Below are positions 4,762-32,259 of a stretch of DNA of 64,000 nt, in pieces. The DNA is taken from the NCBI GenBank assembly GCA_001443025.1, contig LEKP01000001.1:97889-161888 (forward strand), given 5' to 3'. The position numbers and the translations under genes were made by a program. The stretch is from Parcubacteria bacterium GBS-2. GTDB taxonomy: Bacteria > Patescibacteriota > Minisyncoccia > Minisyncoccales > GBS-2. Below the pieces are notes generated by a model that was given only the letters and a program-made list of their open reading frames with translations, did no database searches and was not told where the DNA came from. Each line of letters starts with the position of its first letter. Position 1 is the first letter of the stretch.

Positions 4762-4762
4762 C

Positions 4763-5546: not shown

Positions 5547-5553
5547 CAAAAAT

Positions 5554-6060: not shown

Positions 6061-6068
6061 AAGAGAAA

Positions 6069-6096: not shown

Positions 6097-6102
6097 TAAA
6101 AG

Positions 6103-6945: not shown

Positions 6946-6946
6946 A

Positions 6947-14103: not shown

Positions 14104-14140
14104 AATTGAAAAAACTTTTAGTTTATTATAGCATAAATTG

Positions 14141-15865: not shown

Positions 15866-16989
15866 AGAAAAAGAAAACAAAAAAGAAAAAAACAAAAAAA
15901 CAAAAAAAAGAAAGGAAAAGGATAAAAAGAAAGGAGAAAAAGAAAGAGGTTTTTGTTGAAGACAAACTCTCTCAATTGATTCAAAAAGGAAAAGAGAGAG
16001 GTTTTGTTACTTTTTCAGAAATTTTGTATTTTTTCCCAGAAGTCGAAGAAGATATTGAAGGGCTAGAAAGGCTTTATGAAACTTTAGAAAAGGAAGGAAT
16101 AGAGGTTAGAGAACATAGAGGATTTTTGATGCCAGAAGAAGAGGAAGAAGAGTTGATCCCTGAAGCAAGAATCGACCCAGTCCAAATGTATTTGAAAGAA
16201 ATTGGCGAAACTCCTACCTTGACGGCTGAAGAAGAAAAAGAGCTTGCAAAAAGAATTGAAAAAGGGGACCGGGTTGCCAGAGAGAAATTGATAAAAGCAA
16301 ATTTAAGACTCGTTGTTTCGATTGCCAAAAAATATGTTGGCAAATCTCCCCACATGACCCTTTTAGATTTAATTCAAGAAGGAAACATTGGGTTATTTAG
16401 AGCGGTTGAAAAATTTGATTGGAGAAAAGGATATAAATTTTCAACCTATGCAACCTGGTGGATAAGACAAGCAATAACAAGAGCTTTAGCAGACCAGGCA
16501 AGGACAATTAGAATTCCAGTTCACATGGTTGAGTTGTTAACAAAGTTCAATCAAGTAAAGAGAAGGTTATTGCAAGACCTTGGCAGGGAACCTTTACCAG
16601 AAGAAATCGCAGCAGAGATGGGAATTGAGGTTGATAAAGTCCATCATTTAATAAAAATTTCGCAAGGAACAGTTTCTTTGGAAACTCCAGTTGGGGAAGA
16701 TGAGGAAGATACATTATCAGAATTCATCAAGGATGAAAAAATTCCTTTACCATCTGTTGAGGCAGCAAGAACATTATTGAAGGAAAGATTAAAAGAAATC
16801 TTGGTTGATTTAACTCCAAGGGAAAGAAAAATTTTGGAAATGAGATTTGGTTTGAAAGACGGAGTCACTCACACTTTAGAAGAAGTTGGAAAGGAATTTG
16901 GGGTGACTAGAGAAAGAATAAGACAAATTGAAGCAAAAGCATTAGAGAAATTAAGAGAACACAAAGAAATTCAAAAATTGAAAGAATAA
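15862..16989 (+). CDS. rpoD: RNA polymerase sigma-70 factor RpoD
   Basis: ATGA overlap with dnaG. Lys-rich N-terminus; region 2 [31 protein letters not shown]; region 4 [20 protein letters not shown]. Confidence 0.95.
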
Positions 16990-17016: not shown

Positions 17017-17092
17017 TCCGCGGTAGCTCAATTGGTAGAGCGCCCGGCTGTTAACCGGAGGGTTGCAGGTTCGAGACCTGCCCGCGGAGCCA
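17017..17092 (+). tRNA. tRNA-Asn (anticodon GTT), CCA encoded
   Basis: Manual fold: acceptor TCCGCGG/CCGCGGA, D-arm GCTC-AATTGGTA-GAGC, anticodon loop CTGTTAA, T-arm GCAGG-TTCGAGA-CCTGC, discriminator G plus CCA. Confidence 0.9.
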
Positions 17093-17185
17093 TGTACCAG
17101 AGTTTGCTTTGCAAACACGGTACATGGCCATGAACCGTGCTTTGTTCTGGTTCATGGCCCTTTTGTTTCTCCAAGAGAAACAAAA
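17091..17185 (+). other. three consecutive strong hairpins directly after tRNA-Asn (terminator stack or small structured RNA)
   Basis: HP1: CATGTACC/GGTACATG (17091-98 with 17119-26), with inner GTTTGC/GCAAAC. HP2: GGCCATGAACC/GGTTCATGGCC (17126-36 with 17149-59). HP3: TTTTGTTTCTC/GAGAAACAAAA (17161-71 with 17175-85). Confidence 0.5.
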
Positions 17186-17404
17186 ATTATCAATGAAAAA
17201 ATTGCAATAAAGAACTCTAAAATTATTACTAAAAGATTCATTGAAACTAAGTTAAATTCACCCATCGCTGGACATTTTTTTGTTTTATGTATTATCGTGC
17301 TTTTTTATTTTACGCTATATTTTTAGGAAGTTACTAAAAGCTTAGATTCTGGCGCTTAATGATTTGAACCCTCTTGATTTTCGTTTCGTTTTCGTGTTAT
17401 CTTA

Positions 17405-17444
17405 AATTCATCAAACAAGTTCTAAAATCATCCATCAAGCGGAG
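17405..17444. repeat. 40-bp direct repeat, copy 1
   Basis: AATTCATCAAACAAGTTCTAAAATCATCCATCAAGCGGAG matches 23322-23361 at 39/40 positions. Confidence 0.9.
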
Positions 17445-17803
17445 TACTTTCAATTTACTTTTTAAAAAATGTTAATCGCGCTTTAAAATGTTTTTTATTT
17501 TTCCAAAAAACTAATTTTTTTAATGAATAACTTACTACTTAACTCTTTTAGAAATTTAATCGAATCAGTTGCGCTTTAAAGAAAATTTTTTAAAGTTCTC
17601 AAAAGAAGAAATCTAAAATTATTCAATAATTCTCTGAAACTATTTTTTCTGTTATTAAGGGGTGCGTTTTTCGTAATTTATTAAACTAAAGTATAGTATT
17701 TTTTCATATTTTTATTCGTTGAAAAATTAAATGGAAGAATATAATTAAATAATAAAAAATTTACTATTGACAAAAAACAAATAATTTGATTAAATATAAG
17801 AAA

Positions 17804-20317
17804 ATGAAAGAAATAAACCTTCAGCTAATTCTTATTTTTTGTTTTATCCATGTTTTTATTTTCAATTCTTTTGTTTTAGCTGAAACTCAAGAATACGTTG
17901 AGGGAGAAATAATTGTAAAGTTTAAAAAAAACGAAATAGGCCTAAATGATTTTGAAAATCAATTTTCGTTACAAACAAAAGAAACTCTAAATTGGCTAAA
18001 TGTAGTAGTTTTTAAAATTTTAGATCAAAAATCCATTGAAGAAAAAATAGAAGAAATTAAAAAGAATCCTGAAAATAACGCTGAAAATATTATAGAGTAT
18101 GTCGAACCGAATTATTTAAGATATCCTTTAGAAATTAATACCGATGATCCTCATAAAAACCTTCTCTGGGCGTTGGAAAATTTTGGTCAAGGGGTTAATG
18201 GAATTTCAGGAACTGAAGATGCAGACATTGATTTTTCTGAAGCGAGGGAAATGTTAGAAAATATTGAGAACGAAGTAATTGTCGCGATTATTGATACTGG
18301 AGTTGCTTACAATCACCCAGATCTTGATGAAAAAATGTGGAGAGTAAATAATTGGATAGACGAAGAAGGAAATCAAAAAAGTGGAGATGAAATTACTGGA
18401 TTTGATTTTAAAGATAAAGATAATTCTCCTTTAGATAGTGTTGGTCACGGGACGCATTTGGCAGGAGTTATTGGGGCAATTAAAGGGAATAGAAAAGGAA
18501 TCTTAGGAGTAGCGCCTAATGTGAAAATGATGGCTTTGAGAGTAGGAGATGAAAGTGGTTTTTCTGTTGTGGATATAGTGCGAGCAATTTTCTTTGCAAA
18601 AAACAACGGAGCCAAAATTATTAACGCAAGTTTTGGAGGAAAAGGAGAAAGTCAATTAGAAAAAGAAGCAATTTACTATTTCAAAGAGGCTGGCGGACTT
18701 TTTATTACTTCAGCTGGGAACGATGGAATTGATATTGATCAAAGTCCAATTTATCCTTGTGCTTATGAATTGGAAAACATTATTTGCGTAACAGCCACTA
18801 ATCAAAATGATCAATTGGCTAGGTTCTCAAATTATGGAAAAAATTCTGTTGATATTGGGGCACCTGGAGTAAATATTTATAGTGTTTTTCCTTCTTTTTT
18901 GGAAGTTTTTTTTGAAAATTTTGAAAATACTGATTTTTTTGAAAAATTTAATGCCACCGGAGTAGTTGTTACTTCCACAACCAGGGAAAATGAAAATACT
19001 TTAGCATTAAAAACCGATGTAAAAGAAAATGAACCTTGCTTTAATTTTCAATTAAAAAATCCTCTAATTTTTGATAATCTTGAGGAGATTGAAGGGGTTT
19101 ATTTTAATTTTTTGACTAAATTTGAGACAAATTCAAGTTCGACGTATTTAAAATTGAGTTTCAGTCAAAACGAAGAAAATTTTACTGAAATTTTAAAAAT
19201 TTCAAGAGACGATTTGGATAATGAAGAATGGAAGAAAATCAAAATAAAAATTCCTCCTGATTTTTGGGAAGATCTATTTAATTTCAGATTCGAGGGATGT
19301 GTCCAGAATGGCGATATTATTTGGATTGATGATATTAAAATTTTTATTGTAGACGATGGTTCTAATGAAAATTATGAATTTTTAGATGGAACGTCAATTT
19401 CTGCTTCTTTTGTTTCGGGTTTGGCAAGTTTAATTTGGGGAATAAAACCAGAATTAACCTTTTCTGAAGTAAAAGAAATTATTTTAAACACTGGAGATTC
19501 TTTGACTTTTTTGGAAAATAAAACTGCTACTGGGAAAAGAATTAATTTGTTCAGAGCATTAGACAAAATTGAGCCTCCAATTATCGACAACTTCATTGTT
19601 TTTTTCGATATCTCAAACCCTTCTAAAATTTCAGTTCTTAGTTTCGATGCCTATGACAATTCAGGAAATTGTTGGTATTTAGTCAGCGAGGATCCTAATC
19701 CTCCTTCTTTCGATGATCCTCGATGGCTATTTGATCAATTTCCGACCCCAATTGAATATGATCTTCAACGAGAGGGGATTAAAACTCTTTATGGATGGGT
19801 AAAAGATGGAGCTGGAAATTTTGTGAGTACGAGTAGTTCAATTTTAATCGACTGGACTCCCCCTCCTTATCCATTAACACTTTTGAATTTACCTCCAAAA
19901 AACACAAAATCAACTTCCGCAAAAATAATGATTGGAGGAGAGGATGTGGCATTTTATAAATACAAATTAGACAATGGAGATTGGAGTGAAGAATTACCTG
20001 TAACCATTCCAATAGAATTTAGCGAATTATCTTTAGGTTATCACACGCTCTATGTTTTAGGAAGAGATGCGATTGGGAATTGGCAGACAGCTCCAACCAG
20101 TTATACTTGGAGAATATATCGAGAAAGAATGATTTTTCCTTCAATTCCAATAAAAAACGGGGATTTTAACGGCGATGGAAAGGTTGATAAATACGATTTA
20201 GGTTTGATGATGGCTAATTGGGAAAGGAAAGGTGCTAACCCTTACGATTTAAATGGTGATGCCAAAGTCGACAAATATGATTTTGCTTTATTGATGCTAT
20301 ACTGGACTCTAGAATAA
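17804..20317 (+). CDS. secreted subtilisin-like (S8) serine protease with C-terminal type-I dockerin
   Basis: Signal peptide MKEINLQLILIFCFIHVFIFNSFVLA and an I9-like propeptide. Triad contexts IIDTGV, HGTHLAGVIGA, GTSISASFVSGLASL. The C-terminus has two EF-hand-like dockerin segments, DFNGDGKVDKYD and DLNGDAKVDKYD. Confidence 0.85.
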   Translation: MKEINLQLILIFCFIHVFIFNSFVLAETQEYVEGEIIVKFKKNEIGLNDFENQFSLQTKETLNWLNVVVFKILDQKSIEEKIEEIKKNPENNAENIIEYVEPNYLRYPLEINTDDPHKNLLWALENFGQGVNGISGTEDADIDFSEAREMLENIENEVIVAIIDTGVAYNHPDLDEKMWRVNNWIDEEGNQKSGDEITGFDFKDKDNSPLDSVGHGTHLAGVIGAIKGNRKGILGVAPNVKMMALRVGDESGFSVVDIVRAIFFAKNNGAKIINASFGGKGESQLEKEAIYYFKEAGGLFITSAGNDGIDIDQSPIYPCAYELENIICVTATNQNDQLARFSNYGKNSVDIGAPGVNIYSVFPSFLEVFFENFENTDFFEKFNATGVVVTSTTRENENTLALKTDVKENEPCFNFQLKNPLIFDNLEEIEGVYFNFLTKFETNSSSTYLKLSFSQNEENFTEILKISRDDLDNEEWKKIKIKIPPDFWEDLFNFRFEGCVQNGDIIWIDDIKIFIVDDGSNENYEFLDGTSISASFVSGLASLIWGIKPELTFSEVKEIILNTGDSLTFLENKTATGKRINLFRALDKIEPPIIDNFIVFFDISNPSKISVLSFDAYDNSGNCWYLVSEDPNPPSFDDPRWLFDQFPTPIEYDLQREGIKTLYGWVKDGAGNFVSTSSSILIDWTPPPYPLTLLNLPPKNTKSTSAKIMIGGEDVAFYKYKLDNGDWSEELPVTIPIEFSELSLGYHTLYVLGRDAIGNWQTAPTSYTWRIYRERMIFPSIPIKNGDFNGDGKVDKYDLGLMMANWERKGANPYDLNGDAKVDKYDFALLMLYWTLE

Positions 20318-20318
20318 A

Positions 20319-21224
20319 ATGAGGATGGAATTTAAAAATTTAAAAGTAATATTAATTTTAATTTCTAGTTTTTGGTTTGTTGATTTAGTCAATGCAGAAA
20401 ACCCCCTACTTTATGTTTTACCATCTAATTTAAACAAATTAGTGAACGAACCTTTCGAAATAGAAGTAAGAATAGATCCAAATGAAAGAAAAATTTGTGC
20501 AGTTGAGGGAAAAATTGTCTTTGAAAAAATTTTTTGCCAAAAAATTACTTTAGGAAAAAATATCATTGCGCAAACTTCTCCTTCTTGCGAAAACCCTTAT
20601 TTTCTTTTGGGAATCCCAGGATGTACTACTAATGATACTCTATTATTCACTGTAACCCTAAAAGGAGAAGCATTAGGTTTGGGAATTTTGAATTTTACCG
20701 AAGTCGACATTATAGGAGAGGGAAAATCAATTTCTTCAAATTTTGCTGGTGGAAATTATACTTTGGTTTCTCCTTGTTCTTGTGGAGAATGGAGTGATTG
20801 GCGAAATAAAAACTGCGGAGAAGGAACTTGCTCTTCAACTCAACGCCTTCAAATTCGTACCAGAACTTGTACACCGTCTGGATGCGACATTGAAACCCAG
20901 TATAAATGTATAGAAGATTCAAGTTGTATTCCAAGGTATCCAGCTGAAGAAGAAAAAATTGAAGAGGAAACACCAGTAGAGCAAACAACAGGAACTGAAT
21001 TAGAACAAGCTACTGAAAATGAAAAAGTTGAAAAACCAGAAAAAGGAACTTTTCAAAAAATTATTTTGCCCGAAATACCTCAGCAAAGTTTATTAGCTAC
21101 TTTGGCCATGGCTTGGAAGGAATTTACTAAATCTCCTTTGTTAATGACCCTAACCATTCTATCCTTGGTAAGTTTAGTTATAATCGGAATGAAAGAATGG
21201 CAATTACGAAGAAAAAAGAAATAA
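20319..21224 (+). CDS. membrane-anchored cohesin-like protein with TSP1-like Cys-rich module
   Basis: Signal peptide. Cohesin-like beta segment VNEPFEIEVRIDPNERKICAVEGKIVFEK..LFTVTLKGEALG. CGEWSDWRNKNCGEGTCSSTQRLQIRTRTCTPSGC fits the WSxW..C..RxRxC pattern. Acidic linker and a C-terminal TM helix followed by RRKKK. Confidence 0.55.
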   Translation: MRMEFKNLKVILILISSFWFVDLVNAENPLLYVLPSNLNKLVNEPFEIEVRIDPNERKICAVEGKIVFEKIFCQKITLGKNIIAQTSPSCENPYFLLGIPGCTTNDTLLFTVTLKGEALGLGILNFTEVDIIGEGKSISSNFAGGNYTLVSPCSCGEWSDWRNKNCGEGTCSSTQRLQIRTRTCTPSGCDIETQYKCIEDSSCIPRYPAEEEKIEEETPVEQTTGTELEQATENEKVEKPEKGTFQKIILPEIPQQSLLATLAMAWKEFTKSPLLMTLTILSLVSLVIIGMKEWQLRRKKK

Positions 21225-21271
21225 AAATAAGTGGGTGATCGAGCAAATACGTTTAAATACTTAACCAAAAC

Positions 21272-21294
21272 GCCCAGTGCTGGGCAATTTTTTT
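21272..21294 (+). terminator. rho-independent terminator
   Basis: GCCCA-GTGC-TGGGC followed by AATTTTTTT. Shares a ~30-bp module with the terminator at 23717. Confidence 0.65.
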
Positions 21295-21380
21295 ATTTCT
21301 TTAAGCTTTTCAGAAAAATAGATATCATAAAAATAGAAAGGCTGAAAGAAACATAAAGCTGTGAGCCTTTAAACTATTTC

Positions 21381-23099
21381 ATGAAAGAAAAAAATCAAAA
21401 ACAAAAAGCTTTTATCCAAATTCCAATATTGATAGCGGTTATTGTATCTTTTGCAGTAATCTCAATAGGAGGTTATGGCGGATTTGAATATTTTAAAACC
21501 TCCAAAATCATAAAAGAGGCCGAGCAGTTAGCAAGAGAAGAAAAATACGAAGAGGCAATTGAAAAATTAGAAATTGCTCAAAACAGATTACTCGGTAAGA
21601 TAATGCTTAAACAAACAATAAACACTAAGTTAGACGAAAACAAAAAACTCCTTACAGATAAAACAAAATATGATGAAGGAGTTAATAAACTTAACGAAGG
21701 CGACTTACAGGGTTCTATAGATTTATTATCAGAGCTTCCCGAAAACTCTTTTTATTATCAAAAAGCTCAAACTAAGATAGAAGAAGCAAAGAGAAAAATA
21801 CTAGAAGAAAAACTCTCAGAAGAGCAAATAGCGAGAAAAAAGGCGGAGGAAAAAGCAAAACAAGAAGAATTTGAAAAGAAATTAAAAGAACAACAATTAA
21901 TAAGCAAAGAGGTAGAAGAAAGAATGATGAACGCTGACAACGATGGCGACGGCTTAACTTATAGAGAAGAATTAAAATTAGGAACTTCTGATTGGAATAA
22001 AGATTCTGATTTTGATGGAATTCCAGATAATTTGGATCTACATCCAGCTGGTGGTGGAAGATATCAAGCTCAGACATTTGCTTGGAGTTATGGCGGCTAT
22101 AACTGGACTTGGACGGCTAATATTCATGAAGATTGGTATGAATATTATAAAGCTAAACCCCGATCTCCTCCTCTTAGTTTAGAATATATTACCTCTAACG
22201 ATCCCTTTATAAAAGAAGTAGCTAAAAAGATTTCCGAAGCCGCTATTAAAAATAATCTGAGTAAAAGTGCTTTAGTTGTAGCCTTTGTTCAAAGTCTATC
22301 TTATTTAGACGATGTATATACTGGTTATGATGAATATCCCAAATATCCCGTTGAAACTTTTTTTGAGAAAAATGGTGATTGTGAAGATATGAGTTATTTA
22401 GCAGCTTCTATTCTTAACGCCATGAATATAGATAGTGTTCTTGTTATCTTACCAGACCATATGGCAGTAGGAATTTGGTTTGATTGTGAAATGCCAGGGA
22501 CATATTATAAAGTTGGTGATAGATGTTATTACTATACAGAAACTACAGGAGAGGGATGGTTTTCAGGAGAAATACCTGACAAATATAAATATACAACTGC
22601 AACTTTAATAAAAATTCCCTCTGGAGAAAAAATAACTGTTTCACCCCAATATAAAAAACCTTGTTATGCTGTCAAAGATTTTCCAGGATATTATTCTGAT
22701 GGAAAAAACTTTTATTCTGATAGTCAATGTAATTATCTAGCTTATTGTGTACCCTACAAAGAGTTTTATGTTAATCCTCAAACATTAGACTTTTATTGGG
22801 ATAGTAGCTGTTCTCAATTAGTGGTAAAAGGTTGTTCTAAATCCACTTATTATCCAGGGTATTTCTTTGATGGTATTGATTATTATTATGACTCTCGATG
22901 TATCCAAAAAGCAAGAATATGTAGACCCTCTTCAATTTATTACGACAGATATTGGGATGGTTACGATCATTATTGGGATAGTAGTTGTACCCAAAGAGTA
23001 GTCCCAGGATGTTCCAAATCTATTTATCGTCCAGGATATTTCTTTGATGGTTGGAATTATTATTATGATTACCAATGCACCCAAAAAGTCTCATTTTAG
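21381..23099 (+). CDS. membrane-anchored transglutaminase-like (Cys-protease-fold) protein with TSP3-like Ca-binding repeats and C-terminal Cys/Tyr-rich repeats
   Basis: N-terminal TM helix, coiled-coil region, NADNDGDGLTYREE..DSDFDGIPDNLD. Cys/His core GDCEDMSYLAASIL..PDHMAVGIW. The C-terminus carries ~3 repeats of YWDSSC(S/T)Q.VV.GCSKS.Y.PGYFFDG..YYYD..C.QK. Confidence 0.55.
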   Translation: MKEKNQKQKAFIQIPILIAVIVSFAVISIGGYGGFEYFKTSKIIKEAEQLAREEKYEEAIEKLEIAQNRLLGKIMLKQTINTKLDENKKLLTDKTKYDEGVNKLNEGDLQGSIDLLSELPENSFYYQKAQTKIEEAKRKILEEKLSEEQIARKKAEEKAKQEEFEKKLKEQQLISKEVEERMMNADNDGDGLTYREELKLGTSDWNKDSDFDGIPDNLDLHPAGGGRYQAQTFAWSYGGYNWTWTANIHEDWYEYYKAKPRSPPLSLEYITSNDPFIKEVAKKISEAAIKNNLSKSALVVAFVQSLSYLDDVYTGYDEYPKYPVETFFEKNGDCEDMSYLAASILNAMNIDSVLVILPDHMAVGIWFDCEMPGTYYKVGDRCYYYTETTGEGWFSGEIPDKYKYTTATLIKIPSGEKITVSPQYKKPCYAVKDFPGYYSDGKNFYSDSQCNYLAYCVPYKEFYVNPQTLDFYWDSSCSQLVVKGCSKSTYYPGYFFDGIDYYYDSRCIQKARICRPSSIYYDRYWDGYDHYWDSSCTQRVVPGCSKSIYRPGYFFDGWNYYYDYQCTQKVSF

Positions 23100-23321
23100 T
23101 ATTTTCCCCAAAACTTTGTGCGACAATAAAGTAATATTTTTCAAAATCAAAGCGAAGGGAAAGAGTGTCTAAATCCAAATTTTGTATAGGATTACCTATA
23201 AATAACTTTTAAAACTTTCCGAGTTTACCACCCCCTCCTTTTGATAAATAGCTAGTAGAGGAAGGGAATATATCCGAAATGTCAAGCAGGCGTTAATAAT
23301 CACCGAAATTATTTTATATTG

Positions 23322-23361
23322 AATTCATCAACCAAGTTCTAAAATCATCCATCAAGCGGAG
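23322..23361. repeat. 40-bp direct repeat, copy 2
   Basis: AATTCATCAACCAAGTTCTAAAATCATCCATCAAGCGGAG; lies immediately upstream of the consensus promoter at 23368. Confidence 0.9.
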
Positions 23362-23367
23362 CAAAAT

Positions 23368-23396
23368 TTGACATGATATTTTGATAAAAATATAAT
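23368..23396 (+). promoter_or_regulatory. consensus sigma-70 promoter TTGACA-N17-TATAAT
   Basis: TTGACA at 23368-23373 and TATAAT at 23391-23396. ATG 23404 lies 7 nt downstream. Confidence 0.7.
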
Positions 23397-23403
23397 AAAA
23401 GTG

Positions 23404-23679
23404 ATGAATAAAGATTTCAGTGAGTTAATCGAATATTTAGATCAAAAATTCACAAAATTAAGTGAAGAGATAGCTCAACTTCGAGGAGAGGTAGGTGATA
23501 TTAAAGAGAGAATGGCAACAAAAGTAGAAATTGACAAACTTCTCGATGCAATAGATGCTTATATGAAACAAGGCGAAAATTATCGTCAGGAAATGGTGAT
23601 GTTAGCTCACAAAGTTGATAGGCATGAGAAATGGATAAAACAGATTGCTGAAAAGCTTGGAATAAAATTGGAATATTAA
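23404..23679 (+). CDS. small coiled-coil hypothetical protein (91 aa)
   Basis: Heptad-rich MNKDFSELIEYLDQKFTKLSEEIAQLRGEVGDIKERM..; has its own promoter and terminator. GTG 23401 is an alternative start. Confidence 0.6.
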   Translation: MNKDFSELIEYLDQKFTKLSEEIAQLRGEVGDIKERMATKVEIDKLLDAIDAYMKQGENYRQEMVMLAHKVDRHEKWIKQIAEKLGIKLEY

Positions 23680-23716
23680 TTTAAAAAATTTTTTTACTTT
23701 CTTATTAACCCAAAAC

Positions 23717-23740
23717 GCCCATCACTGGGCAATTTTTTTT
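23717..23740 (+). terminator. rho-independent terminator
   Basis: GCCCA-TCAC-TGGGC followed by AATTTTTTTT. Confidence 0.65.
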
Positions 23741-23775
23741 GGATAAAATGTTTAATTCATTTAAAATAAAAAAAC

Positions 23776-26700
23776 ATGGAGTTAAAACTTGTCTATAAAA
23801 ACCTTTGTCCAAATTGTGGGGGAAATATTAGCTCAGAAAGGCTGAGTAAGGGTTTGCCTTGTGAAAATTGTTTGCCAAATGAAAAAGGAAAATTAAAATT
23901 TGGTCCTTTATTGGAAGTTGAAGAAAGAAACAAAAGAATAGAAGAAATTGAAGAGCTTTTCAAAAAAGTAGTGAAAGCTAAAATGTGGGCTTTACAAAAG
24001 TTTTGGGTAAGAAGATTTTTAAAAGGTGAAAGCTTTACTTTGATTGCTCCGACAGGTTCTGGAAAAACGACAATCCAAATAATTTTGTGTTTGTTTTCAG
24101 CAAAATTTTTGAAAAAGAGATGCTTGATAATTTTACCAACCAGCATTTTAGTAAGCGAAGTGTCAAAAAGAATGAAAGATTTTTCAGAAAAATTAAACTT
24201 CAATCTCACAATTTCAAGTTATCACTCTTTACTTTCTCAAAAAGAAAAGAAAGAAGAAATTTCAAAGATTGATTTTGCAGACATTATTGTGACTACTCAC
24301 TTGAGCATAATGAAAAAAGAAGAAATAGCAAGGCAAAGCGTTGATGTTGTTTTTGTCGACGATGTAGATAGTTTTTTGAGAAAGAGCAAGGCAATAAGGT
24401 TTGTCTTGAGAATGATGAAGTTACCAGAAAAAATAAAAAAGATTGTCACAGGTGTTTTTGAAAAAAAGATTAATTTGAAAGATGCAATTTCTGAGATTTC
24501 AAACACAAAAGAAAAAATTACAGCCCAACTCATTGTTAGTGGAGCGACTCAAAAGGCAAAAAGGACAAGGGCAATTTCGATTTTAAATTCAATATTTGGA
24601 TTTTCGATTGGTTTAAAATCTGAGTTTGGAAGGAACATTTTAGATTGCTTTGTTGAGACAAAAGATATTAAAAAAGAGCTTTTAAATTTGGTTAAGATTT
24701 TGGGAGCTGGAGGTTTAATTTTTGTCCCAATGGATAAAAAATCTGAGTTTGCTGAAGAATTGGAGAAATTTTTGATAGAAAATGGAATAAAAGTTAAGGC
24801 ATTTTTAAAACCAGATAAAAAAACCTTTGAAGATTTCAAAAGCGGAAATTTGGATGCTTTAATTGGAATGGTGACAACGAGAAGCCCTCTAGTTAGGGGA
24901 ATTGATTTGCCTGCAAGAATTAGATATGCGATTTTTGGTGGAGTTCCAAAATTTGTAGTGAGAATAAAAATAGAAGAATTCCATCCTACAAAATGGCTAA
25001 TGCTTTTGAACAATCTTCAGCAGGCAATAAAGGAAGAGTATAAAAAAGAATACCAACTCCTTGTTGCAAATTTAATAAAAATAAAAACCTTGAATACAGA
25101 ACAACTGGAAGCAGTCAGAAAAGCTCTTGCTGAAAATAAAAATTTGGAAGGGTTTTTAGAATTTGTAAGGAAAGTTGCCTTAAGTGGATTGGAATTTTTC
25201 AAAAAAATTTTGAAAGATGAAGATATTTTAAAAGCAATAAGAGAATCCCCGACAATAAGCTTTAGCGAAAGAGAAGGGGAGTATTCGTTTTTGATTCCAG
25301 ATTCGATAGCTTACATTCAAGCCTCAGGAAGAACGAGTAGATTGTACATTGGAGGTGTAACAAAAGGATTGAGCGTTGTGATAATAGATGAAAAAAAAGC
25401 ATTCAATTCTTTGAAAAAGGATTTAAGTTATTTTGAAGATATTGAGTGGAAAAATTTGAAAGAAATCGATTTGAAAAAAGTTATTGAAGAGATTGATGAA
25501 GATAGAAAGAAGGTTTTGCTCTCTCTTGAAGATAAGTTGAGAGTGGAAGAAACAAAAATAGCTTTGAAGACAAGGTTATTCATCGTAGAATCACCAACTA
25601 AAGTGAAAACTATTGCGAGATTTTTTGGAAAGCCGGCAAAGAAAAGATACGAAGGTTTAATCGTTAATGAAGTTTTTGGGGCAAATTCCCTATTAATAAT
25701 CACTTCGAGTAAAGGACATATTACTGATTTGAGCGAAGAGGAAGGATTTTTTGGGGTTGAGGTAAAAGAAACCTTCATTCCCTACAATGAGCCAATAAGA
25801 AAGTGCGCAGTTTGTGGGAAAGAAATTGAAGAGAATGAAAAAGAGTGTGCTTGTGGAAGTAAAAAATTTACTGATTCAAAACCAAGAATTGAGGTTTTAA
25901 GAGAGATTGCATCTTTAGTGGATGAAGTGATCATTGGTACTGATCCTGATAGTGAAGGAGAAAGAATTGCTTTTGACTTGTGTTTGCTTTTGAAGCCATT
26001 CAACAAAAACATAAAAAGAGCAAGGTTTCACGAAGTCACAAAGAAAGAAATCCATCGGGTTTTGGAAAATTTGGAAGATTTTGATTTGAATTTGGTCAAG
26101 GCTCAATTGGTAAGAAGAATAGAAGATAGATGGATTGGATTTAGTATTTCTCCTGTACTTTGGATGGTTTTTAAAAACAAAAGGCTTTCTGCAGGAAGGG
26201 TTCAAACTCCAGTTTTGGGATGGGTTGTTGAGAGAACAAAAAAACTTAAAGAAAAAGAAGAGTTAATAAGTTTGAAATTAGAAAATGGCCTTCAATTACA
26301 ATTTAGGGCCAAAAAAGGAACTTATCAAAAAATTTCCAAAGAGGGATTTGTTGAGATAAAAAAAGTAAAGACCTTTAAAGAAGAAATAAGTCCTCTTCCT
26401 CCATTTACCACAGACACTTTTATTTCTGCTTTAACTTCCCTTTTGAAAATCGATGCTGGAGAAGCAATGCAAATTGCTCAAAAATTATTTGAAAGCGGAC
26501 TAATTACTTATCATAGAACTCCAAGCACTACTGTTAGTTCAGCAGGGATTAGTATTGCCAAAGAGTACATTTTTTCGAATTTTGGAGAAGAGTTGTTTAA
26601 AGCAAGAAAATGGGAAACAGAAGGAGCCCACGAATGTATAAGACCAACAAAAGCAATCGATTCTCAAAAGTTGAGAAATTTAATTGGATTGAAAATTTTG

Positions 26701-27333
26701 AGATTTCCAGTTCCTTTCACAGAAAGAGAAATGAGAGCTTATGATTTAATTTTCAAGAGATTTATCGCAAGTCAAATGAAACCTTCTAAAGTTGAGAAAA
26801 TAAAATTTAAAATTTTGGCTGGAGGACAAGAGAAAGAATTTGAATTTGTAAACAAAGTTTTAGAAGAAGGATTTTCAAAGATTTTTAAATTGCAAGAAAA
26901 AAACATTCTCGCTTTAAAAGAGGGAAAAACAAAAATTTTAGAGAGTAAAAAGAAAACAGTTCCAGTTTTTTACCCTTTTACTTACTCAGAAATCGTTTCG
27001 ATGATGAAAGAAAAAGGAATCGGAAGGCCTTCAACTTACGCCAAAATTTTGGAAATTTTAAAAAGAAGAAAATACGTGAAAGAAGTGAAAAAATCCATGT
27101 TAGTTTCTACAGTCTTGGGAAGAAAAGTTTTTGAGTTTTCACAGCAAAATTTTAGTAAATATTTGCACGAACAAACAACCAAAAAATTAGAAGAAGATAT
27201 GGACAGCGTTGAAACCGGAAAGAAAAAATTTGAAGAGGTCTTAAGAGAAATTTTTGTTCAAGTAAAAGAAATTATAAAAAATAACCTTGAAAAAGGAGTT
27301 GAATATCCAAATCTTTCATTGGTTAGATTTTAA
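23776..27333 (+). CDS. rgy: reverse gyrase (helicase-like domain fused to type IA topoisomerase)
   Basis: 1185 aa. N-terminal Zn finger CPNCGG..CENC. Helicase-like motifs APTGSGKTT, DDVD, SGAT, QASGRTSRL. TOPRIM LFIVESPTK and GTDPDSEGERIA. Internal Zn ribbon CAVCGK..CACGSKKF. Catalytic Tyr context LITYHRTPST. Confidence 0.9.
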   Translation: MELKLVYKNLCPNCGGNISSERLSKGLPCENCLPNEKGKLKFGPLLEVEERNKRIEEIEELFKKVVKAKMWALQKFWVRRFLKGESFTLIAPTGSGKTTIQIILCLFSAKFLKKRCLIILPTSILVSEVSKRMKDFSEKLNFNLTISSYHSLLSQKEKKEEISKIDFADIIVTTHLSIMKKEEIARQSVDVVFVDDVDSFLRKSKAIRFVLRMMKLPEKIKKIVTGVFEKKINLKDAISEISNTKEKITAQLIVSGATQKAKRTRAISILNSIFGFSIGLKSEFGRNILDCFVETKDIKKELLNLVKILGAGGLIFVPMDKKSEFAEELEKFLIENGIKVKAFLKPDKKTFEDFKSGNLDALIGMVTTRSPLVRGIDLPARIRYAIFGGVPKFVVRIKIEEFHPTKWLMLLNNLQQAIKEEYKKEYQLLVANLIKIKTLNTEQLEAVRKALAENKNLEGFLEFVRKVALSGLEFFKKILKDEDILKAIRESPTISFSEREGEYSFLIPDSIAYIQASGRTSRLYIGGVTKGLSVVIIDEKKAFNSLKKDLSYFEDIEWKNLKEIDLKKVIEEIDEDRKKVLLSLEDKLRVEETKIALKTRLFIVESPTKVKTIARFFGKPAKKRYEGLIVNEVFGANSLLIITSSKGHITDLSEEEGFFGVEVKETFIPYNEPIRKCAVCGKEIEENEKECACGSKKFTDSKPRIEVLREIASLVDEVIIGTDPDSEGERIAFDLCLLLKPFNKNIKRARFHEVTKKEIHRVLENLEDFDLNLVKAQLVRRIEDRWIGFSISPVLWMVFKNKRLSAGRVQTPVLGWVVERTKKLKEKEELISLKLENGLQLQFRAKKGTYQKISKEGFVEIKKVKTFKEEISPLPPFTTDTFISALTSLLKIDAGEAMQIAQKLFESGLITYHRTPSTTVSSAGISIAKEYIFSNFGEELFKARKWETEGAHECIRPTKAIDSQKLRNLIGLKILRFPVPFTEREMRAYDLIFKRFIASQMKPSKVEKIKFKILAGGQEKEFEFVNKVLEEGFSKIFKLQEKNILALKEGKTKILESKKKTVPVFYPFTYSEIVSMMKEKGIGRPSTYAKILEILKRRKYVKEVKKSMLVSTVLGRKVFEFSQQNFSKYLHEQTTKKLEEDMDSVETGKKKFEEVLREIFVQVKEIIKNNLEKGVEYPNLSLVRF

Positions 27334-27894
27334 TTTTGATTTTAAAAACAAAATTGAGATAGTAGAAAATAAAGCAGTTGAAATGGCAATGAGTTTTGGG
27401 GACAAATTTTTTTCTTTAGAATCTTTTGGAATCTCTGCCAAAAGTTTTTGAGGTTTCTCTTTTTCAATTTCAGGTTTTAAAATTTTTATTTTCTCTCTGG
27501 CTTGAACATAAGAACTTTTCCCACTTTCTCTGACTTTTATTACAACTTCAGCCTCTCCCTCAAAAAACAAAAATTCTTTTTTCATTCTCAATTTTAATTT
27601 TCCCTCAAAAGAAGGACCCGAAAATAAATTTTTAAGATAATAAAAGGAATCTCTCCATTTTTGGTTTTTCTCATCGTATACTTCAGATAATACCTTATCT
27701 TTTTCAATAGAAATTTTTAAATCATAAGAGGTATTTTTTAAATTCGAAATTGAAACAAAAATTTCAACTTCTTCGTTTGCCTTAAAGCTTTCTGGAAAAG
27801 AAAGCGAAATTTTTGGTTTTTGTTGGGCTTTGGCAAGAGCAATTTCAAAGGAGAAAAGTAAAATGGAAATTGCAAAGATTTTAAACAGTTTCAT
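27316..27894 (-). CDS. hypothetical secreted protein with C-terminal membrane anchor
   Basis: Signal peptide MKLFKIFAISILLFSFEIALA, beta-rich body, C-terminal TM helix LIAISTALFSTISILFL. Its 3' end overlaps the rgy 3' end by 18 nt. Confidence 0.5.
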   Translation of the reverse strand: MKLFKIFAISILLFSFEIALAKAQQKPKISLSFPESFKANEEVEIFVSISNLKNTSYDLKISIEKDKVLSEVYDEKNQKWRDSFYYLKNLFSGPSFEGKLKLRMKKEFLFFEGEAEVVIKVRESGKSSYVQAREKIKILKPEIEKEKPQKLLAEIPKDSKEKNLSPKLIAISTALFSTISILFLKSKLKSNQ

Positions 27895-27914
27895 TTTATC
27901 ATTATAATCAAAGA

Positions 27915-30900
27915 ATGGAAGAAAAAGAAATCATTGAGAGAGTAATTTTAGAAAACAAAATTGAAAAGTTAAACCCTGTTCAGCAAGGGGCATTAAAAAT
28001 GGGGATTTTGAAAAGGGAAAGCTTGGTTGTTTCTTCTCCAACATCAAGCGGAAAGACTCTTTTGGCAGAATTGGCAGGATTGAACGTTACTCTAAATAAA
28101 AGAAAAAAGATGGTTTATCTTTGTCCCTTAGTTGCTTTGGCAAGGGAAAAATACGAGGATTTCAAAAGAAAATATCAAAAATATGGAATCAAAGTTGCTC
28201 TTTCTGTCGGAAATTATGATTCTTCAGATCCTTGGCTTGAAAAATTTGATTGGATAGTTGCCTCAAATGAAAAATTCGATTCTTTAATCAGGCACGAAGC
28301 TCCTTGGATAGGAGAAATTGGTTTAATTGTTGCAGACGAAATTCATCTTTTGGACGATCCAAGCAGGGGACCGACCTTGGAAATTTTGTTAACGATTTTG
28401 AAAGAAATTTTACCAAAAGCTCAAATTTTGGCATTTTCAGCAACAATCAAAAACGCAGATGAAATAGGGGAGTGGTTGGGAGCAAAAGTTTTAAAATCAA
28501 ATTTTAGGCCAGTCCCTCTTTACAAGGGAATTTTGTTTGGAGGAAAAATAAAATTGTTTGATTTCAAAGAATACAAATTGAGTCAAGAATTAGGACTCGA
28601 AGAATCAATAGTTGAAAACACTCTTTTAATGAAAAAGCAATTGATATTTTTCCTTTCTTCAAGAAGGAATGCCGAGGCCTTAGCAGAAAGGCTTTCAAAA
28701 TTGGTTTTTCACTTTTTGGAAGAAAAAGAAATTGAAAAACTAAGAGAAATTTCAAAGAAAATTGAAACTACATTAGAAATTCCAACTGAGCAATGCAAAA
28801 AATTGGCAAAATGTGTAGAAAAAGGAGTTGCATTCTATCATTCTGGAATTTTGTTTGGACAGAGAGTTTTAATCGAAGAGGCTTATAAAAAGGGATTAAT
28901 AAAAGTCATTACCTCGACAACTGCCCTTTGCGTACATCCAGACACTTTAGTTTATTGTCAAAACGGGGAATTAAAAAAAATTAAAGATCTAAAAATTGGT
29001 GAAAAAATTTTGACCTTCAATTTTAAAAATTTCACTTTTAAATTTGCTAAAGTTCTTAAAAAATTTGCTAGACCTTTATCCAAAAAAGAAAAACTCATTG
29101 AGATAACAACATTCAGTGGGAAAAAAATAATTACAACCTCAACCCACCCATTTCTTACACTAAAAGGAGGACAATTCAAATGGATTTCAGCCTCTCAATT
29201 GAGTAAAAAAGATTATCTCGTAGTAGCTAAAGAAATTCCACAACCAAAAAGCAAAACTCCCAATTTCCTTGAAATTTTACCCAGTAACGCCAGGATAGCG
29301 GAGAAGAAATTAATAAAATTCGTTTTGAACGAATTAATTAAGAAATATAAGACAAAAGTAAACATTTCAAGAAAATTCAAAATAAATATAAAAAAATTGG
29401 AAACTTATTTCAATCGAGGAACGAGCTTGCCTTTTAAATACTTTCGGAGTTTTATTAAAGATTTAGATATAAAACCTGAATTTCTTTCAAGAACAATCCA
29501 TATATCTAGCTGGAAACAAATGGATAAAATAAAAATTTCTCAGAATTTAAATCTTTTAGCAAGACTGTATGGAATTTTGTTAGGTGATGGCAATCTTTTA
29601 AAAGTCAAGAGTTTTAATCGAGGGAATACTTATCTCATCTCTCTTACAAGCGGAGATGAAAAATGGCTTAAACAATATCAGACCCTGTTAAGAAAATTTG
29701 GTCTTCAAACCAAAATTCGGTCCCATCTCAAATTTTCTGGAGTGAAACAAATATCCTTTAAATCAAAAATTTTAGGAGAAATATTACATGAAAAATTAAA
29801 TTTTCCATTGGGAAGAAAAGCGAAAATCATCAAAATAACGCCTTTCTTTCTCTCCTCGAACGAACTTTTAAAAGAGGTAATCGGTGGCTTGATCGACACT
29901 GATGGAAGTATAGGTAAAGATAAAATAGAAATTTCTTCGATTAGTAAAGAATTGATTCAACAACTTCAACTTGCTTTAATGAGATTTGGTATCTATTCCC
30001 ACCTCGAAAAAAGAAAAAAACATCTCACCCGTTTAGTAAAATCAAAAAATCCTTCTTATCGATTGTCTATTTTTGGAAAAAACGCAATTCTCTTTAAAAG
30101 AAATTTTACCTTGCTTCATTATAAAAAAAGAGAAAAGCTCAAGTTAATTAAAGAAAAATCAAACACCTATAGCAAAGATATTATTCCAGATTCTGGCACT
30201 TTTATTAAAAAAATTTTAAAAGAAACAAAATTATCTCAATGGAAATTCAGAAAGATAGTTAAATTGAGCCCCTGGCATTATTTAGTTAAGGGACAAAATC
30301 TTTTAAGGAAAACTATTCTAAATAATTTTTCTAAATTACCCAATTCAAGAACGCTTTGTTTTTTAAGAAAAATAGCAAACTCTCCTTTAGCTTTTGAGCA
30401 AATTAAGCGTATAAAAGAAGTTAAAAAATCGATTGTTTACGATTTAACAACTACTGAGAATTTTTGGGCTAATGGATTTGTGATTCATAATTCCTACGGT
30501 ATCAATCTTCCAAATTTCCGAGCAGTAGTTAGAGATGTGAAAAGATACTATCCAGGATTAGGATCTGTTTATTTGCCGGTTTTGGAAGTTGAACAAATGT
30601 TTGGAAGGTCTGGAAGACCTCAATTTGACAGTTGGGGAGAAGGGATTTTGGTGGCAAAGACAAAAGAAGATGTAAAGGAATTAGAAGATTATTACATTAA
30701 GGGAGAATTAGAAGAAATTTCAAGTAAAATTTCCACAGAATCTGCCTTAAGGATGCATATTTTATCTTTAATTTCAAACAGGTTTTGTAAAAGCCAAAAT
30801 CAATTGTTAGATTTTTTGAAAAAGACATTCTTTGGAAAAAAGTTCAAAGAAATTTTGATTTTAAGAGAGAAAATTGAGGAAGTGATTTTTGCCCTCGAGG

Positions 30901-31625
30901 ATTGGGGATTTATTAAAACAGAAGAAATAAAAGAGGATGGGGAAGTGATAGATAAAAAATTGATGACAACAAGAATCGGTAAAAGAATTTCTCAGCTTTA
31001 CCTGGATCCAGCTAGCGCCAATTTATTCATTGAGAATTTAAGAGATTGTCAAAAAGCAAACGAATTTACCTTATTTTGCCTTCTATCAAAAGCAGAAGAA
31101 TTAAAGCCCTCACCAAGTCTGTCAATGAAGGATGCTTTTTTGATCGAGCAAGAAATTTTCAAGAATGAAGAATACTTTTTCTTTCAAATTCCAGATGAAT
31201 TTGATGAGGAATACGAGGAATTTTTGCGAGAGGCAAAGTTGGCAACGATTTTTAGTTTTTGGATTGAGGAAAAAGCAGAAGGGGAAATTATGGAAAAGTT
31301 AAAAATAACTCCTGGAGAGCTACACTCAAGGATTGAAATTTTAGATTGGTTGCTTTATTCAATTTTGGAAATTTCAAAGTTGATTCCTTTTGATGAAAAA
31401 ATAAAGAAAATGCTAAAAAAACTAAGAGTCAGAGCTTATTATGGAATAAAAGAAGAGTTAATTCCTCTGGTATCTTTGGAGGGAATTGGGAGAATCAGGG
31501 CAAGAACCCTTTTTGATGCAGGATTGAAAACGATTTCAGATTTAAAAAAAGCAAGTGTTGAGAAAATTGCAAAAGTTTTAAAAAGCAAAAGTCTAGCAGA
31601 GAAAATAAAAGAGCAAATTAAATAA
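27915..31625 (+). CDS. hel308: Hel308/Ski2-type DEAH-box DNA helicase, interrupted by an intein
   Basis: Walker A SSPTSSGKT, VADEIHLLDD, AFSATIKN. Motif V is split as STTAL|intein|SYGINLP. Motif VI QMFGRSGRPQFD; C-terminal HhH LEGIGRIRARTLFDAGL. The extein totals 715 aa. Confidence 0.85.
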   Translation: MEEKEIIERVILENKIEKLNPVQQGALKMGILKRESLVVSSPTSSGKTLLAELAGLNVTLNKRKKMVYLCPLVALAREKYEDFKRKYQKYGIKVALSVGNYDSSDPWLEKFDWIVASNEKFDSLIRHEAPWIGEIGLIVADEIHLLDDPSRGPTLEILLTILKEILPKAQILAFSATIKNADEIGEWLGAKVLKSNFRPVPLYKGILFGGKIKLFDFKEYKLSQELGLEESIVENTLLMKKQLIFFLSSRRNAEALAERLSKLVFHFLEEKEIEKLREISKKIETTLEIPTEQCKKLAKCVEKGVAFYHSGILFGQRVLIEEAYKKGLIKVITSTTALCVHPDTLVYCQNGELKKIKDLKIGEKILTFNFKNFTFKFAKVLKKFARPLSKKEKLIEITTFSGKKIITTSTHPFLTLKGGQFKWISASQLSKKDYLVVAKEIPQPKSKTPNFLEILPSNARIAEKKLIKFVLNELIKKYKTKVNISRKFKINIKKLETYFNRGTSLPFKYFRSFIKDLDIKPEFLSRTIHISSWKQMDKIKISQNLNLLARLYGILLGDGNLLKVKSFNRGNTYLISLTSGDEKWLKQYQTLLRKFGLQTKIRSHLKFSGVKQISFKSKILGEILHEKLNFPLGRKAKIIKITPFFLSSNELLKEVIGGLIDTDGSIGKDKIEISSISKELIQQLQLALMRFGIYSHLEKRKKHLTRLVKSKNPSYRLSIFGKNAILFKRNFTLLHYKKREKLKLIKEKSNTYSKDIIPDSGTFIKKILKETKLSQWKFRKIVKLSPWHYLVKGQNLLRKTILNNFSKLPNSRTLCFLRKIANSPLAFEQIKRIKEVKKSIVYDLTTTENFWANGFVIHNSYGINLPNFRAVVRDVKRYYPGLGSVYLPVLEVEQMFGRSGRPQFDSWGEGILVAKTKEDVKELEDYYIKGELEEISSKISTESALRMHILSLISNRFCKSQNQLLDFLKKTFFGKKFKEILILREKIEEVIFALEDWGFIKTEEIKEDGEVIDKKLMTTRIGKRISQLYLDPASANLFIENLRDCQKANEFTLFCLLSKAEELKPSPSLSMKDAFLIEQEIFKNEEYFFFQIPDEFDEEYEEFLREAKLATIFSFWIEEKAEGEIMEKLKITPGELHSRIEILDWLLYSILEISKLIPFDEKIKKMLKKLRVRAYYGIKEELIPLVSLEGIGRIRARTLFDAGLKTISDLKKASVEKIAKVLKSKSLAEKIKEQIK
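28929..30491 (+). mobile_element. class-1 intein with LAGLIDADG homing-endonuclease domain (521 aa)
   Basis: Starts with Cys (CVHPDTLV, block A). Block B TTSTHPF. LAGLIDADG motifs LYGILLGDGNL and GGLIDTDGSI. Ends NGFVIHN followed by +1 Ser. Removing it restores the helicase motif V sequence STTALSYGINLP. Confidence 0.9.
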
Positions 31626-32259
31626 TGCCAGATCTTTTCCAAAGAGAAAGTAAAATTTTGAAGTTTTCTTTTTTCTTTTTCAGAAAAAGACAGTTAAAAT
31701 CGATTTCCTCTTCGATAGTAAAAATTCTTCCTAAGGGAATGAAATTTCTTTTTTCAACTAAACTCACTAATTCCCCAAAACTCAAAAGATTTTTCTTTCT
31801 CAATGGATCTGGATTGTATTTTTGGTAAGAATTTGGAGAGAATTTTTGAATCGTCTCTAAAAATAAAAAAATTTTTGTTACTCTTTTTAGCTCATTAAGC
31901 GCTCTTTCTCTCTCTTTTTTGTTCAAGTATTCAATCACATCAAAACAAGTTACCACCTCAAAACTTTCTTTTTTAAATGGCAACTTCAAAATATTTCCTT
32001 TTATAATTCATTTTTTTGCTGGAGAATTTTTAAGGCAAAAATTAGATATTTCCACTCCAAAAGCCTTGTATCCCATTTTCCTCAGTGCCAAAACTAGCCC
32101 TCCCATTCCACACCCAACATCTAAAAACTTCCAGGATTTTTTTGGTTTCAAAACTTCAACCAGTCTTTTTGCTTCAAACTTTCCTAATTTCTTGTAATTT
32201 TTTAAATAATCGGAATACCAACCACTCGAAAAATATTTTTCATCAAAATCTAGTTTCAT
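31618..32259 (-). pseudogene. class I SAM-dependent methyltransferase interrupted by one in-frame TGA
   Basis: Motif I FLDVGCGMGG lies upstream and FEVVTCFDVIEYL downstream of a single TGA (complement of 32008-32010). Same frame throughout: ..NSPAKK*IIKGNILKLPFKK.. Confidence 0.6.

Follow-up and report, generated by a model that had tools for sequence, protein, structure and literature searches.

How did two genes of archaeal type come to lie side by side in the genome of a bacterium? The question is raised by a 64,000-nucleotide stretch of Parcubacteria bacterium GBS-2 (contig LEKP01000001.1, positions 97,889 to 161,888 of the forward strand), referred to here as the window, in which a reverse gyrase gene (rgy, 23776-27333) and an intein-bearing gene for the helicase Hel308 (27915-31625) both lie on the plus strand, with 581 bp between the rgy stop and the Hel308 ATG. 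A first-pass annotation made from the sequence letters had reported this pair at a spacing of about 580 bp, had called it an island and had suggested joint acquisition or a functional link. The layout stood up to measurement; the joint acquisition did not. We consider it likely that the two genes reached the Candidate Phyla Radiation (CPR) in two separate transfers from archaea and became neighbors only secondarily. The features of the pair are as follows:

23776-27333, plus strand: reverse gyrase, 1185 aa (Pfam, TIGR01054 and PDB matches)
27316-27894, minus strand: 192-aa protein of no known family (translation; without Pfam or NCBIfam match)
27892-27917, no strand: putative symmetric divergent promoter core, CAT-N6-ATTATAAT-N6-ATG (sequence, relatives)
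27915-28928, plus strand: Hel308 N-extein, aa 1-338, with motifs I-IV and the first half of motif V
28929-30491, plus strand: Hel308 intein, 521 aa, aa 339-859, in motif V (Pfam, NCBIfam, junctions)
30492-31625, plus strand: Hel308 C-extein, with the rest of motif V, motif VI, winged-helix domain, ratchet domain 4 and helix-hairpin-helix (HhH) domain 5

The window encodes a complete reverse gyrase and an intein-interrupted Hel308

Reverse gyrase drives positive supercoiling of DNA with ATP and protects DNA at high temperature. Its gene is the classic marker for hyperthermophiles, and its passage from archaea into bacteria is a standard example of adaptive horizontal gene transfer (HGT). The rgy product joins a superfamily 2 (SF2) helicase-like part and a type IA topoisomerase in a single chain, together with the zinc finger, catalytic tyrosine and Walker A motif that define the enzyme. 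Pfam assigned it zf_Rg (PF17915, aa 4-38, E = 4e-17), DEAD (74-222), Toprim (601-753) and Topoisom_bac (770-1156), and NCBIfam model TIGR01054 covered aa 4-1166 with 1164 bits against a cut-off of 472. The zinc-finger cysteines (CPNC...CENC), the Walker A motif APTGSGKT and a VDDVD motif are present in the translation. Reverse gyrases in the PDB (1gku, 1gl9, 4ddt) were matched over both domains, in two stretches (E ~1e-182 to 1e-190), and the full architecture is the same as in the enzymes of Archaeoglobus fulgidus (1GKU) and Thermotoga maritima (4DDT). The motif GLITYHRT superposes on GLITYHRT of A. fulgidus, which places the catalytic tyrosine at Tyr912, aligned to the A. fulgidus residue that we take to be Tyr809 of Rodriguez and Stock (2002). 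The protein would be predicted to supercoil DNA positively at high temperature, at the expense of ATP.

Hel308, a helicase with 3'-to-5' polarity, acts by remodeling stalled forks and intermediates of recombination. The open reading frame (ORF) in the window encodes 1236 aa, from which splicing would leave a product of 715 aa, and Pfam recognized DEAD, HTH_61, Helicase_dom4_arc and HHH_5 together with Intein_splicing and LAGLIDADG_3. The spliced sequence aligns to Pyrococcus furiosus Hjm (2zj2) over residues 5-700 of 715 (E = 1e-145) and also aligns end to end with the A. fulgidus (2p6r) and Sulfolobus solfataricus (2va8) structures. It has the same five domains as these archaeal proteins (RecA1, RecA2, winged helix, ratchet domain 4 and HhH domain 5) and all SF2 motifs. 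Scores against the NCBIfam equivalog models (NF040935 helicase_Hel308, PRK02362 and others) fell below their cut-offs (681 versus 887 bits; 489 versus 1200), which, given the full-length alignments, points to divergence from the model clades and not to a different architecture. Unwinding of forked DNA in the 3'-to-5' direction would be expected of the product, though only once the intein has been spliced from motif V.

Reviews describe Hel308 as archaeal and metazoan, and the Ski2-like helicases of bacteria as Lhr-type (PMC13623763, PMC7437997). The usual archaeal or metazoan host is not found here: both the host and the whole clade of relatives are bacterial. Unlike archaeal Hel308/Hjm (2ZJ2, 2P6R, 2VA8), the protein is encoded by a bacterium, falls in a deep monophyletic bacterial clade and carries a motif V intein; its position points to an orthologue by descent via HGT, sister to the Aenigmatarchaeota copies.

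The intein interrupts helicase motif V, with junctions TSTTAL/CVHP...VIHN/SYGINLP. All class 1 residues are present (Cys1 in CVHPDTL, block B TSTH in TSTHPF, the terminal His-Asn in GFVIHN and a +1 Ser), the profiles PF14890 (E = 1e-22) and TIGR01445 intein_Nterm were matched, and two LAGLIDADG motifs (LLGDGNL and GLIDTDGS) coincide with matches to PF14528 in two stretches. Inteins at this site were carried by the window, L027, L043-L045, L047, L048 and L065 (L and P numbers denote contigs and proteins of relatives), whereas intein-free 715-aa alleles (L030-L036, L040), 87-91% identical, read TSTTAL-S/A-xG(I/V)NLP at the same position. Compared with L027, identity is 68% in the intein but 90% in the exteins; compared with L047, it is 89% in the intein but 74% in the C-extein. 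Presence and absence at one site, together with intein identities that disagree with those of the exteins, fit a mobile homing element, and the intein is probably a selfish element moving among Hel308 alleles. The archaeal LAGLIDADG inteins of replication factor C (RFC), PolB and helicases share its class 1 residues and two LAGLIDADG motifs, and they too sit in conserved catalytic motifs and are polymorphic for presence among near-identical alleles; unlike them, this one sits in a bacterial copy of an archaeal gene. A mini-intein occupies the same motif V site in an Aenigmatarchaeota Hel308 (P0221), and other sites are used within the Hel308 family by P0127 (a Ser1 intein after 'GKFD', near motif Ia/Ib) and P0201 (motif VI).

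The archaeal-type genes reside in a bacterial genome

Bacterial DnaG and RpoD are encoded just 5' of the region (14138-16989), and the window also encodes GroEL and a bacterial ribosomal cluster (S12-S7-EF-G-EF-Tu...SecY). The absence of ribosomal protein L30 is a hallmark of the CPR. At 52996-55196 the order is S5, a 16-nt gap, L15 and SecY, with no room for L30, and the only named relative of SecY among the 120 matches listed was from a Parcubacteria bacterium, at 62% identity. The host is a member of the Patescibacteria (a Parcubacteria/Paceibacteria-like CPR bacterium), and DnaG, RpoD, EF-G/EF-Tu, the L30-less operon and SecY together place the archaeal-type genes in a bacterial genome. 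The first-pass description of both genes as archaeal-type or thermophile-associated was borne out as to archaeal type: they sit in a bacterial genome, and their nearest archaeal relatives are Aenigmatarchaeota. Two further candidates were rejected. That the window itself is archaeal was ruled out by DnaG, RpoD, EF-Tu, GroEL and the bacterial ribosomal operon; GroEL, considered as another archaeal-type gene that would extend the "island," proved to be bacterial.

An assembly or binning artefact, with an archaeal fragment misjoined to a bacterial contig or a window that is truly archaeal, would account for the 77%-identical rgy genes labelled Aenigmatarchaeota in GTDB/NCBI records; archaeal and bacterial loci are also similar in GC (0.31-0.34), and both organisms were found in one sample. 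However, the arrangement rpoD-tRNA-Asn-rgy-(small ORF)-Hel308-methyltransferase-GNAT-pyrophosphatase-HD-NUDIX is found again on independent contigs, complete or as overlapping segments. At least eight metagenome datasets contributed such contigs, including ones of 517 kb and 796 kb, so that the junctions on both sides (rpoD-tRNA-Asn-rgy and Hel308-methyltransferase-GNAT-pyrophosphatase-HD-NUDIX) were assembled independently. Both flanks hold bacterial genes, and these flanks and junctions are shared with L027, L030-L033, L035, L036, L046, L050 and L065. The upstream boxes are of bacterial -10 type and do not follow the archaeal TATA-type pattern, and the bacterial copies of the genes form clades of their own. 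GC is flat at 0.30-0.33 across the region (0.30-0.32 over 22-32 kb), like that of the flanks. An artefact is extremely unlikely on this evidence.

Reverse gyrase and Hel308 differ in their depth of divergence from archaea

Trees were built by neighbor joining with bootstrap on simple corrected distances. The nearest archaeal relatives of rgy and of Hel308 belong to the same DPANN phylum, Aenigmatarchaeota, present in the same metagenomes. Homologues of rgy at 70-86% identity fall in two contexts, one bacterial (among them L027, L031-L033, L035, L036 and L061) and one archaeal (among them L028, plus L001, L002 and L008, labelled Aenigmatarchaeota). The L028 copy, 76% identical and from the same sample as L027, lies among archaeal S19e, L37ae, Rpr2 and intein-bearing RFC genes. 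Pfam matches in the flanks of L001 and L002 did not tell archaeal from bacterial DNA; the archaeal nature of this group rests on the ribosomal and RFC genes of L028, on shared LTD and AAA_14 neighbors and on the NCBI labels. In the rgy tree, a clade with 100% support unites the bacterial copies with one group of Aenigmatarchaeota. Its sister, also at 100%, is a second Aenigmatarchaeota group (~61% identity), and Sulfolobales and Desulfurococcales branch next. The ultimate origin of rgy appears to be archaeal. As separate observations, the L028 rgy divergently adjoins a 2064-aa RFC gene (3786-9980, minus strand) with two LAGLIDADG inteins, and the very AT-rich contig L062 (GCA_964502135.1, 1-16103, GC 0.256) shows the order RmuC-MutS-MutL-rgy: here too the surroundings look bacterial, and rgy has DNA repair genes as neighbors.

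Hel308 copies at ~56-100% identity formed one clade, apart from Aenigmatarchaeota-labelled sequences at 48-53%. A smaller tree, with three archaeal outgroups and 21 copies from the bacterial side, recovered the latter as monophyletic in 100% of bootstraps. The deep contexts of this clade are bacterial: an F-type ATPase operon with DinB and AddA, the order CtpA-L25-FtsA-FtsZ-L9-L27, and QueA/TGT/PolX. On contigs that carry both genes, SecY and Hel308 have similar identities to the window (81%/81% and 64%/71%), and Hel308 appears to track the host and to reach far deeper than rgy.

The two genes differ in their distance from archaea. Identity to the nearest archaeal copies is 48-53% for Hel308 but ~75-77% for rgy, and the latter value is unusually high for a pair from different domains. 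Within bacteria the relation is the opposite, with rgy diverging faster than Hel308 (86% versus 90% in L027; 75% versus 81% in L036). That rgy is closer to archaea despite its faster divergence in bacteria indicates different timing of the two arrivals and argues against a joint one. The two histories are not congruent: the nearest archaeal relatives fall in the same phylum, yet the depths of divergence are discordant.

Arrival of both genes on one fragment from an Aenigmatarchaeota-like donor, as the first-pass annotation had proposed, would be in keeping with the shared phylum of their nearest archaeal relatives and with the adjacency of the pair in the window and 11 related contigs. However, no Hel308 was found at ~10 archaeal rgy loci with flanks of up to 10 kb, and an archaeal Hel308 locus on a 938-kb Aenigmatarchaeota contig (L064) has PolB, Hjc, Kae1 and rubrerythrin nearby and no rgy. 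The window and the Aenigmatarchaeota rgy loci share no synteny except rgy itself. Many bacterial contexts of the deeper Hel308 clade are without rgy, and rgy occurs without Hel308 in L061-L063. An island signature was also lacking, with flat GC and no other compositional deviation, no integrase or transposase genes and no tRNA-derived direct repeat. Together with the discordant identities, these results make a joint island very improbable.

For the two separate transfers that we favor, we infer the following order and direction. Hel308 would have been acquired first and thereafter inherited vertically through the deep bacterial clade. Reverse gyrase would have arrived later, or been exchanged more recently with Aenigmatarchaeota, landing 3' of tRNA-Asn in the ancestor of a crown subclade, beside a pre-existing divergent pair made up of Hel308 and a gene for a small membrane protein.

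Several points weigh against this sequence of events. The trees are neighbor-joining trees only, on simple corrected distances, and within the rgy clade monophyly has only 65% support for the main bacterial group and 67% for the archaeal group. Two further rgy groups from bacterial contexts lie near the base of the clade: P0030/31, related to the lineage of the window and with neighbors homologous to genes of L034/L035, and P0032/33, in which rgy adjoins RmuC-MutS-MutL. With these basal groups, back-transfer of rgy from bacteria to Aenigmatarchaeota would be as parsimonious as repeated transfers from archaea to bacteria. The age gap between the genes would shrink if the true donor lineage of Hel308 is unsampled. 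On L061, the order of rgy, a convergent gene and methyltransferase MT213 resembles that of the window minus Hel308, which makes the proposed order of events at the locus somewhat tentative. The shared donor phylum, the persistence of the pair across the clade and its tightening in L033/L035/L065 are compatible with some selection for co-location. Finally, the thermophily and habitat of the host are ones that we infer.

Transcription signals suggest separate, leaderless units

Upstream of rgy, the window contains the following features:

17017-17092, plus strand: tRNA-Asn(GTT) (ARAGORN, Rfam)
17093-23700, plus strand: window-specific insertion between tRNA-Asn and rgy (absent in L027 and L031; Pfam)
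23368-23396, plus strand: perfect sigma-70 consensus promoter, TTGACA-N17-TATAAT (12/12 match)
23404-23679, plus strand: small coiled-coil gene (weak coiled-coil Pfam matches only)
23717-23730, plus strand: GC-rich hairpin and T-run resembling an intrinsic terminator (sequence, relatives)
23762-23767, plus strand: -10-like box TAAAAT, 8 nt 5' of the rgy ATG (sequence, conserved in relatives)

In L027 and L031, rpoD, tRNA-Asn and rgy are contiguous, and the tRNA lies 63-64 nt 5' of rgy. The 6.6-kb insertion in the window carries a subtilase with dockerin (17786-20317), a 301-aa ORF, a 572-aa transglutaminase-like ORF and the coiled-coil gene; neither the 301-aa nor the 572-aa ORF was assigned to a family by Pfam or NCBIfam. 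The first-pass annotation had placed a coiled-coil gene with a perfect promoter directly upstream of the pair. Both are present as described, with all 12 consensus positions matched; because the insertion is absent in L027/L031, however, they belong to it and not to the rgy/Hel308 pair. The coiled-coil protein has 91 aa from the ATG at 23404, 7 nt past the -10 box, or 92 aa from a GTG at 23401. Its homologues, at 40-46% identity, sit elsewhere in L034, L045 and L048, and none was found at this position in relatives. An integrative element at tRNA-Asn was considered and rejected, as there was no att-like repeat of the tRNA 3' end and no integrase; tRNA-derived repeats of at least 12 nt were not found, except for one chance match inside rgy.

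The promoter at 23368-23396 is the sole 12/12 consensus match within 23000-32200. Consensus matches as a class were not enriched over shuffled sequence (27 found, 26.6 +/- 5 expected), so the motifs alone mean little, and the support for them comes from conservation at the same spacing in relatives. The -10 boxes that the first-pass annotation had read before each gene, TAAAAT-N8-ATG (23762) and TATAAT-N6-ATG (27903), are both there and conserved. Upstream of rgy, TAAAAT-N8/9-ATG is kept in L027, L031-L033, L035, L061 and L062, whereas archaeal rgy copies have a TTTATAT-type element ~30 nt upstream instead. The hairpin at 23717-23730 is also found 3' of tRNA-Asn in L027, L031 and L032, and it looks like an intrinsic terminator that insulates rgy from the upstream gene.

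Directly before Hel308, TATAAT (27903-27908) lies within a palindrome that yields this box on each strand, 6 nt from each of two divergent start codons that are only 20 nt apart. The second start codon is that of the 192-aa ORF, the product of which has an N-terminal signal peptide and a C-terminal hydrophobic anchor. The first-pass annotation had called this small gene convergent. It is convergent with rgy, the 3' end of which it overlaps tail to tail by 18 nt, but it is divergent from Hel308, to which it lies head to head. The head-to-head arrangement is found in L027, L030-L032, L036, L039-L041 and L046, at 60-71% identity of the small protein, and thus also in L040, a contig without rgy; in L044 and L050 the gene lies 5' of Hel308 at a larger gap. 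The palindromic core is almost invariant across nine relatives, and TATAAT-N6-ATG before Hel308 was retained without an adjacent divergent gene in L034, L044, L045 and L050.

Boxes 6-8 nt from the ATG imply leaderless mRNAs, and the core at 27892-27917 would imply bidirectional leaderless transcription. Of the 51 genes in the window, 7 have a strict TAWAWT box whose end lies 6-10 nt from the ATG, four of these genes being in the rgy-Hel308 region, and only 4 of the 51 are preceded by a Shine-Dalgarno-like motif. These counts suggest that initiation that is leaderless or independent of Shine-Dalgarno motifs may be widespread in this CPR genome. Leaderless transcription of three or four independent units would be the simplest reading of the region. 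On this reading, the foreign genes would have been refitted with bacterial promoters, in place of their archaeal TATA-type upstream regions. The pair in the window does not have the form of an operon: the minus-strand gene at 27316-27894 lies between the two, and Hel308 has its own conserved -10 box. With an opposite-strand gene and separate promoters between them, rgy and Hel308 cannot be one transcript here, and in this genome they would be independent transcription units.

The adjacency has been gained, lost and tightened

A gene neighborhood survey showed rgy next to Hel308 not only in the window but also on 11 related contigs, which come from at least eight metagenome datasets; in close relatives the adjacency is repeatedly broken. 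On the Hel308 tree it is limited to a crown clade that includes L036 (91% support), and it is absent in L037/L047 (where PPDK and an aminotransferase lie upstream), L048 and L058-L060. This distribution suggests that the adjacency arose once, in the crown subclade, 3' of tRNA-Asn. Close relatives would then have lost it on at least two occasions. L040, with the order LigA-FtsW-small ORF-Hel308, nests with L027/L030-L032 at 99.5%, and L034 and L045, in which the adjacency is also broken, group with L035 at 100%. On L061, tRNA-Asn lies 1.5 kb before rgy in an otherwise unrelated context, and rgy is followed by a methyltransferase that is 73% identical to the one 3' of Hel308 in L027.

In three other relatives, which make up one sublineage, the small ORF has been lost, and the rgy stop either overlaps the Hel308 start or is separated from the ATG by only 5-11 nt. 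The tightened rgy/Hel308 junctions are as follows:

L033, ~9969-10001
L035, 6564-6585
L065, 9995-10001

The TATAAT of Hel308 itself is missing in L033 and L035, the two of the three whose upstream sequence was read, and this loss implies cotranscription there. The arrangement in L033/L035/L065 is operon-like.

Such junctions bear on the possibility that the pair is a selected functional module, in which two separately acquired genes would be kept together because their products cooperate, perhaps on forks that stall or suffer damage in the heat, and because the genes benefit from coregulation. The adjacency has persisted across the crown clade while rgy fell to 75% identity, and the tightening, loss of the intervening gene and loss of the Hel308 box in L033/L035 are what such a module would lead one to expect. 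However, in the window the two genes form distinct transcription units on either side of a minus-strand gene; very close relatives have broken up the pair on at least two occasions (L040; L034/L045); and it was not seen at the loci examined in archaea, where both proteins are native. A literature search turned up no paper linking both enzymes. We regard a selected module as unlikely, and secondary adjacency after two separate transfers as the better account. A broader version, distinctly doubtful, is that hot-spring Patescibacteria are assembling a chimeric archaeal-style toolkit by serial exchange with Aenigmatarchaeota, with rgy and Hel308 drawn into a cotranscribed module (L033/L035/L065). 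If that were so, rgy and Hel308 would cooperate where forks are damaged or stalled at high temperature, a partnership for which even archaea offer no described example, and the high interdomain identity of rgy would reflect ongoing two-way traffic between two radiations of ultra-small symbionts.

Relation to known transfers of archaeal genes

Reverse gyrase has reportedly been transferred from archaea to bacteria (Thermotogae, Aquificae and others), in association with hot habitats (Forterre 2002; Brochier-Armanet and Forterre 2007). Like these bacterial enzymes, the one in the window combines archaeal ancestry with a probable hot-habitat association; unlike the Thermotogae and Aquificae recipients, its host belongs to the Patescibacteria/CPR. 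A passage of PMC12329446 cites Catchpole and Forterre (2019) on reverse gyrase. Aenigmarchaeota reverse gyrases have been found only in metagenome-assembled genomes (MAGs) from thermal habitats (PMC8407114), and a passage of the same article cites Jaffe et al. (2019) for the transfer of a form III-like RuBisCO from Aenigmarchaeota to the CPR. That precedent involves the same donor and recipient radiations, both of them co-occurring ultra-small symbionts. Unlike the metabolic RuBisCO, rgy and Hel308 are genes of information processing and DNA topology, and for part of the rgy clade the transfer may have run in either direction.

In a Kerguelen hot-spring study, a Paceibacteria MAG is implicitly among the rgy-positive MAGs (PMC9789041). 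Beyond this implicit mention, our literature search gave no account of rgy or Hel308 from Patescibacteria, and nothing on bacterial Hel308 orthologues or a functional link between rgy and Hel308. What is new is the occurrence of known families in an unexpected host; no new mechanism or kind of system is involved. Thermophilic adaptation by HGT would extend to the genome-reduced Patescibacteria, in which both genes are intact and long retained. A bacterial clade of true Hel308 orthologues is documented, and information-processing genes are added to the known gene traffic between CPR and DPANN. The relatives also provide a natural series for the domestication and clustering of foreign genes, with promoters replaced, an adjacency gained, lost and tightened, and an intein gained and lost.

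Other features of the window

A gene at 38697-40514 (plus strand) encodes a 605-aa protein with phage long-tail-fiber (Gp34_trimer) and Peptidase_S74 intramolecular chaperone domains, and it lies in the sole GC bump of the window (0.40 versus ~0.32). The protein could be a prophage remnant or a phage-derived adhesin of a CPR episymbiont. A pair of genes for LemA and a peptidase of family M48 is present in the window (3234-4714) and also near Hel308 in the Aenigmatarchaeota contig L064 (18632-20100).

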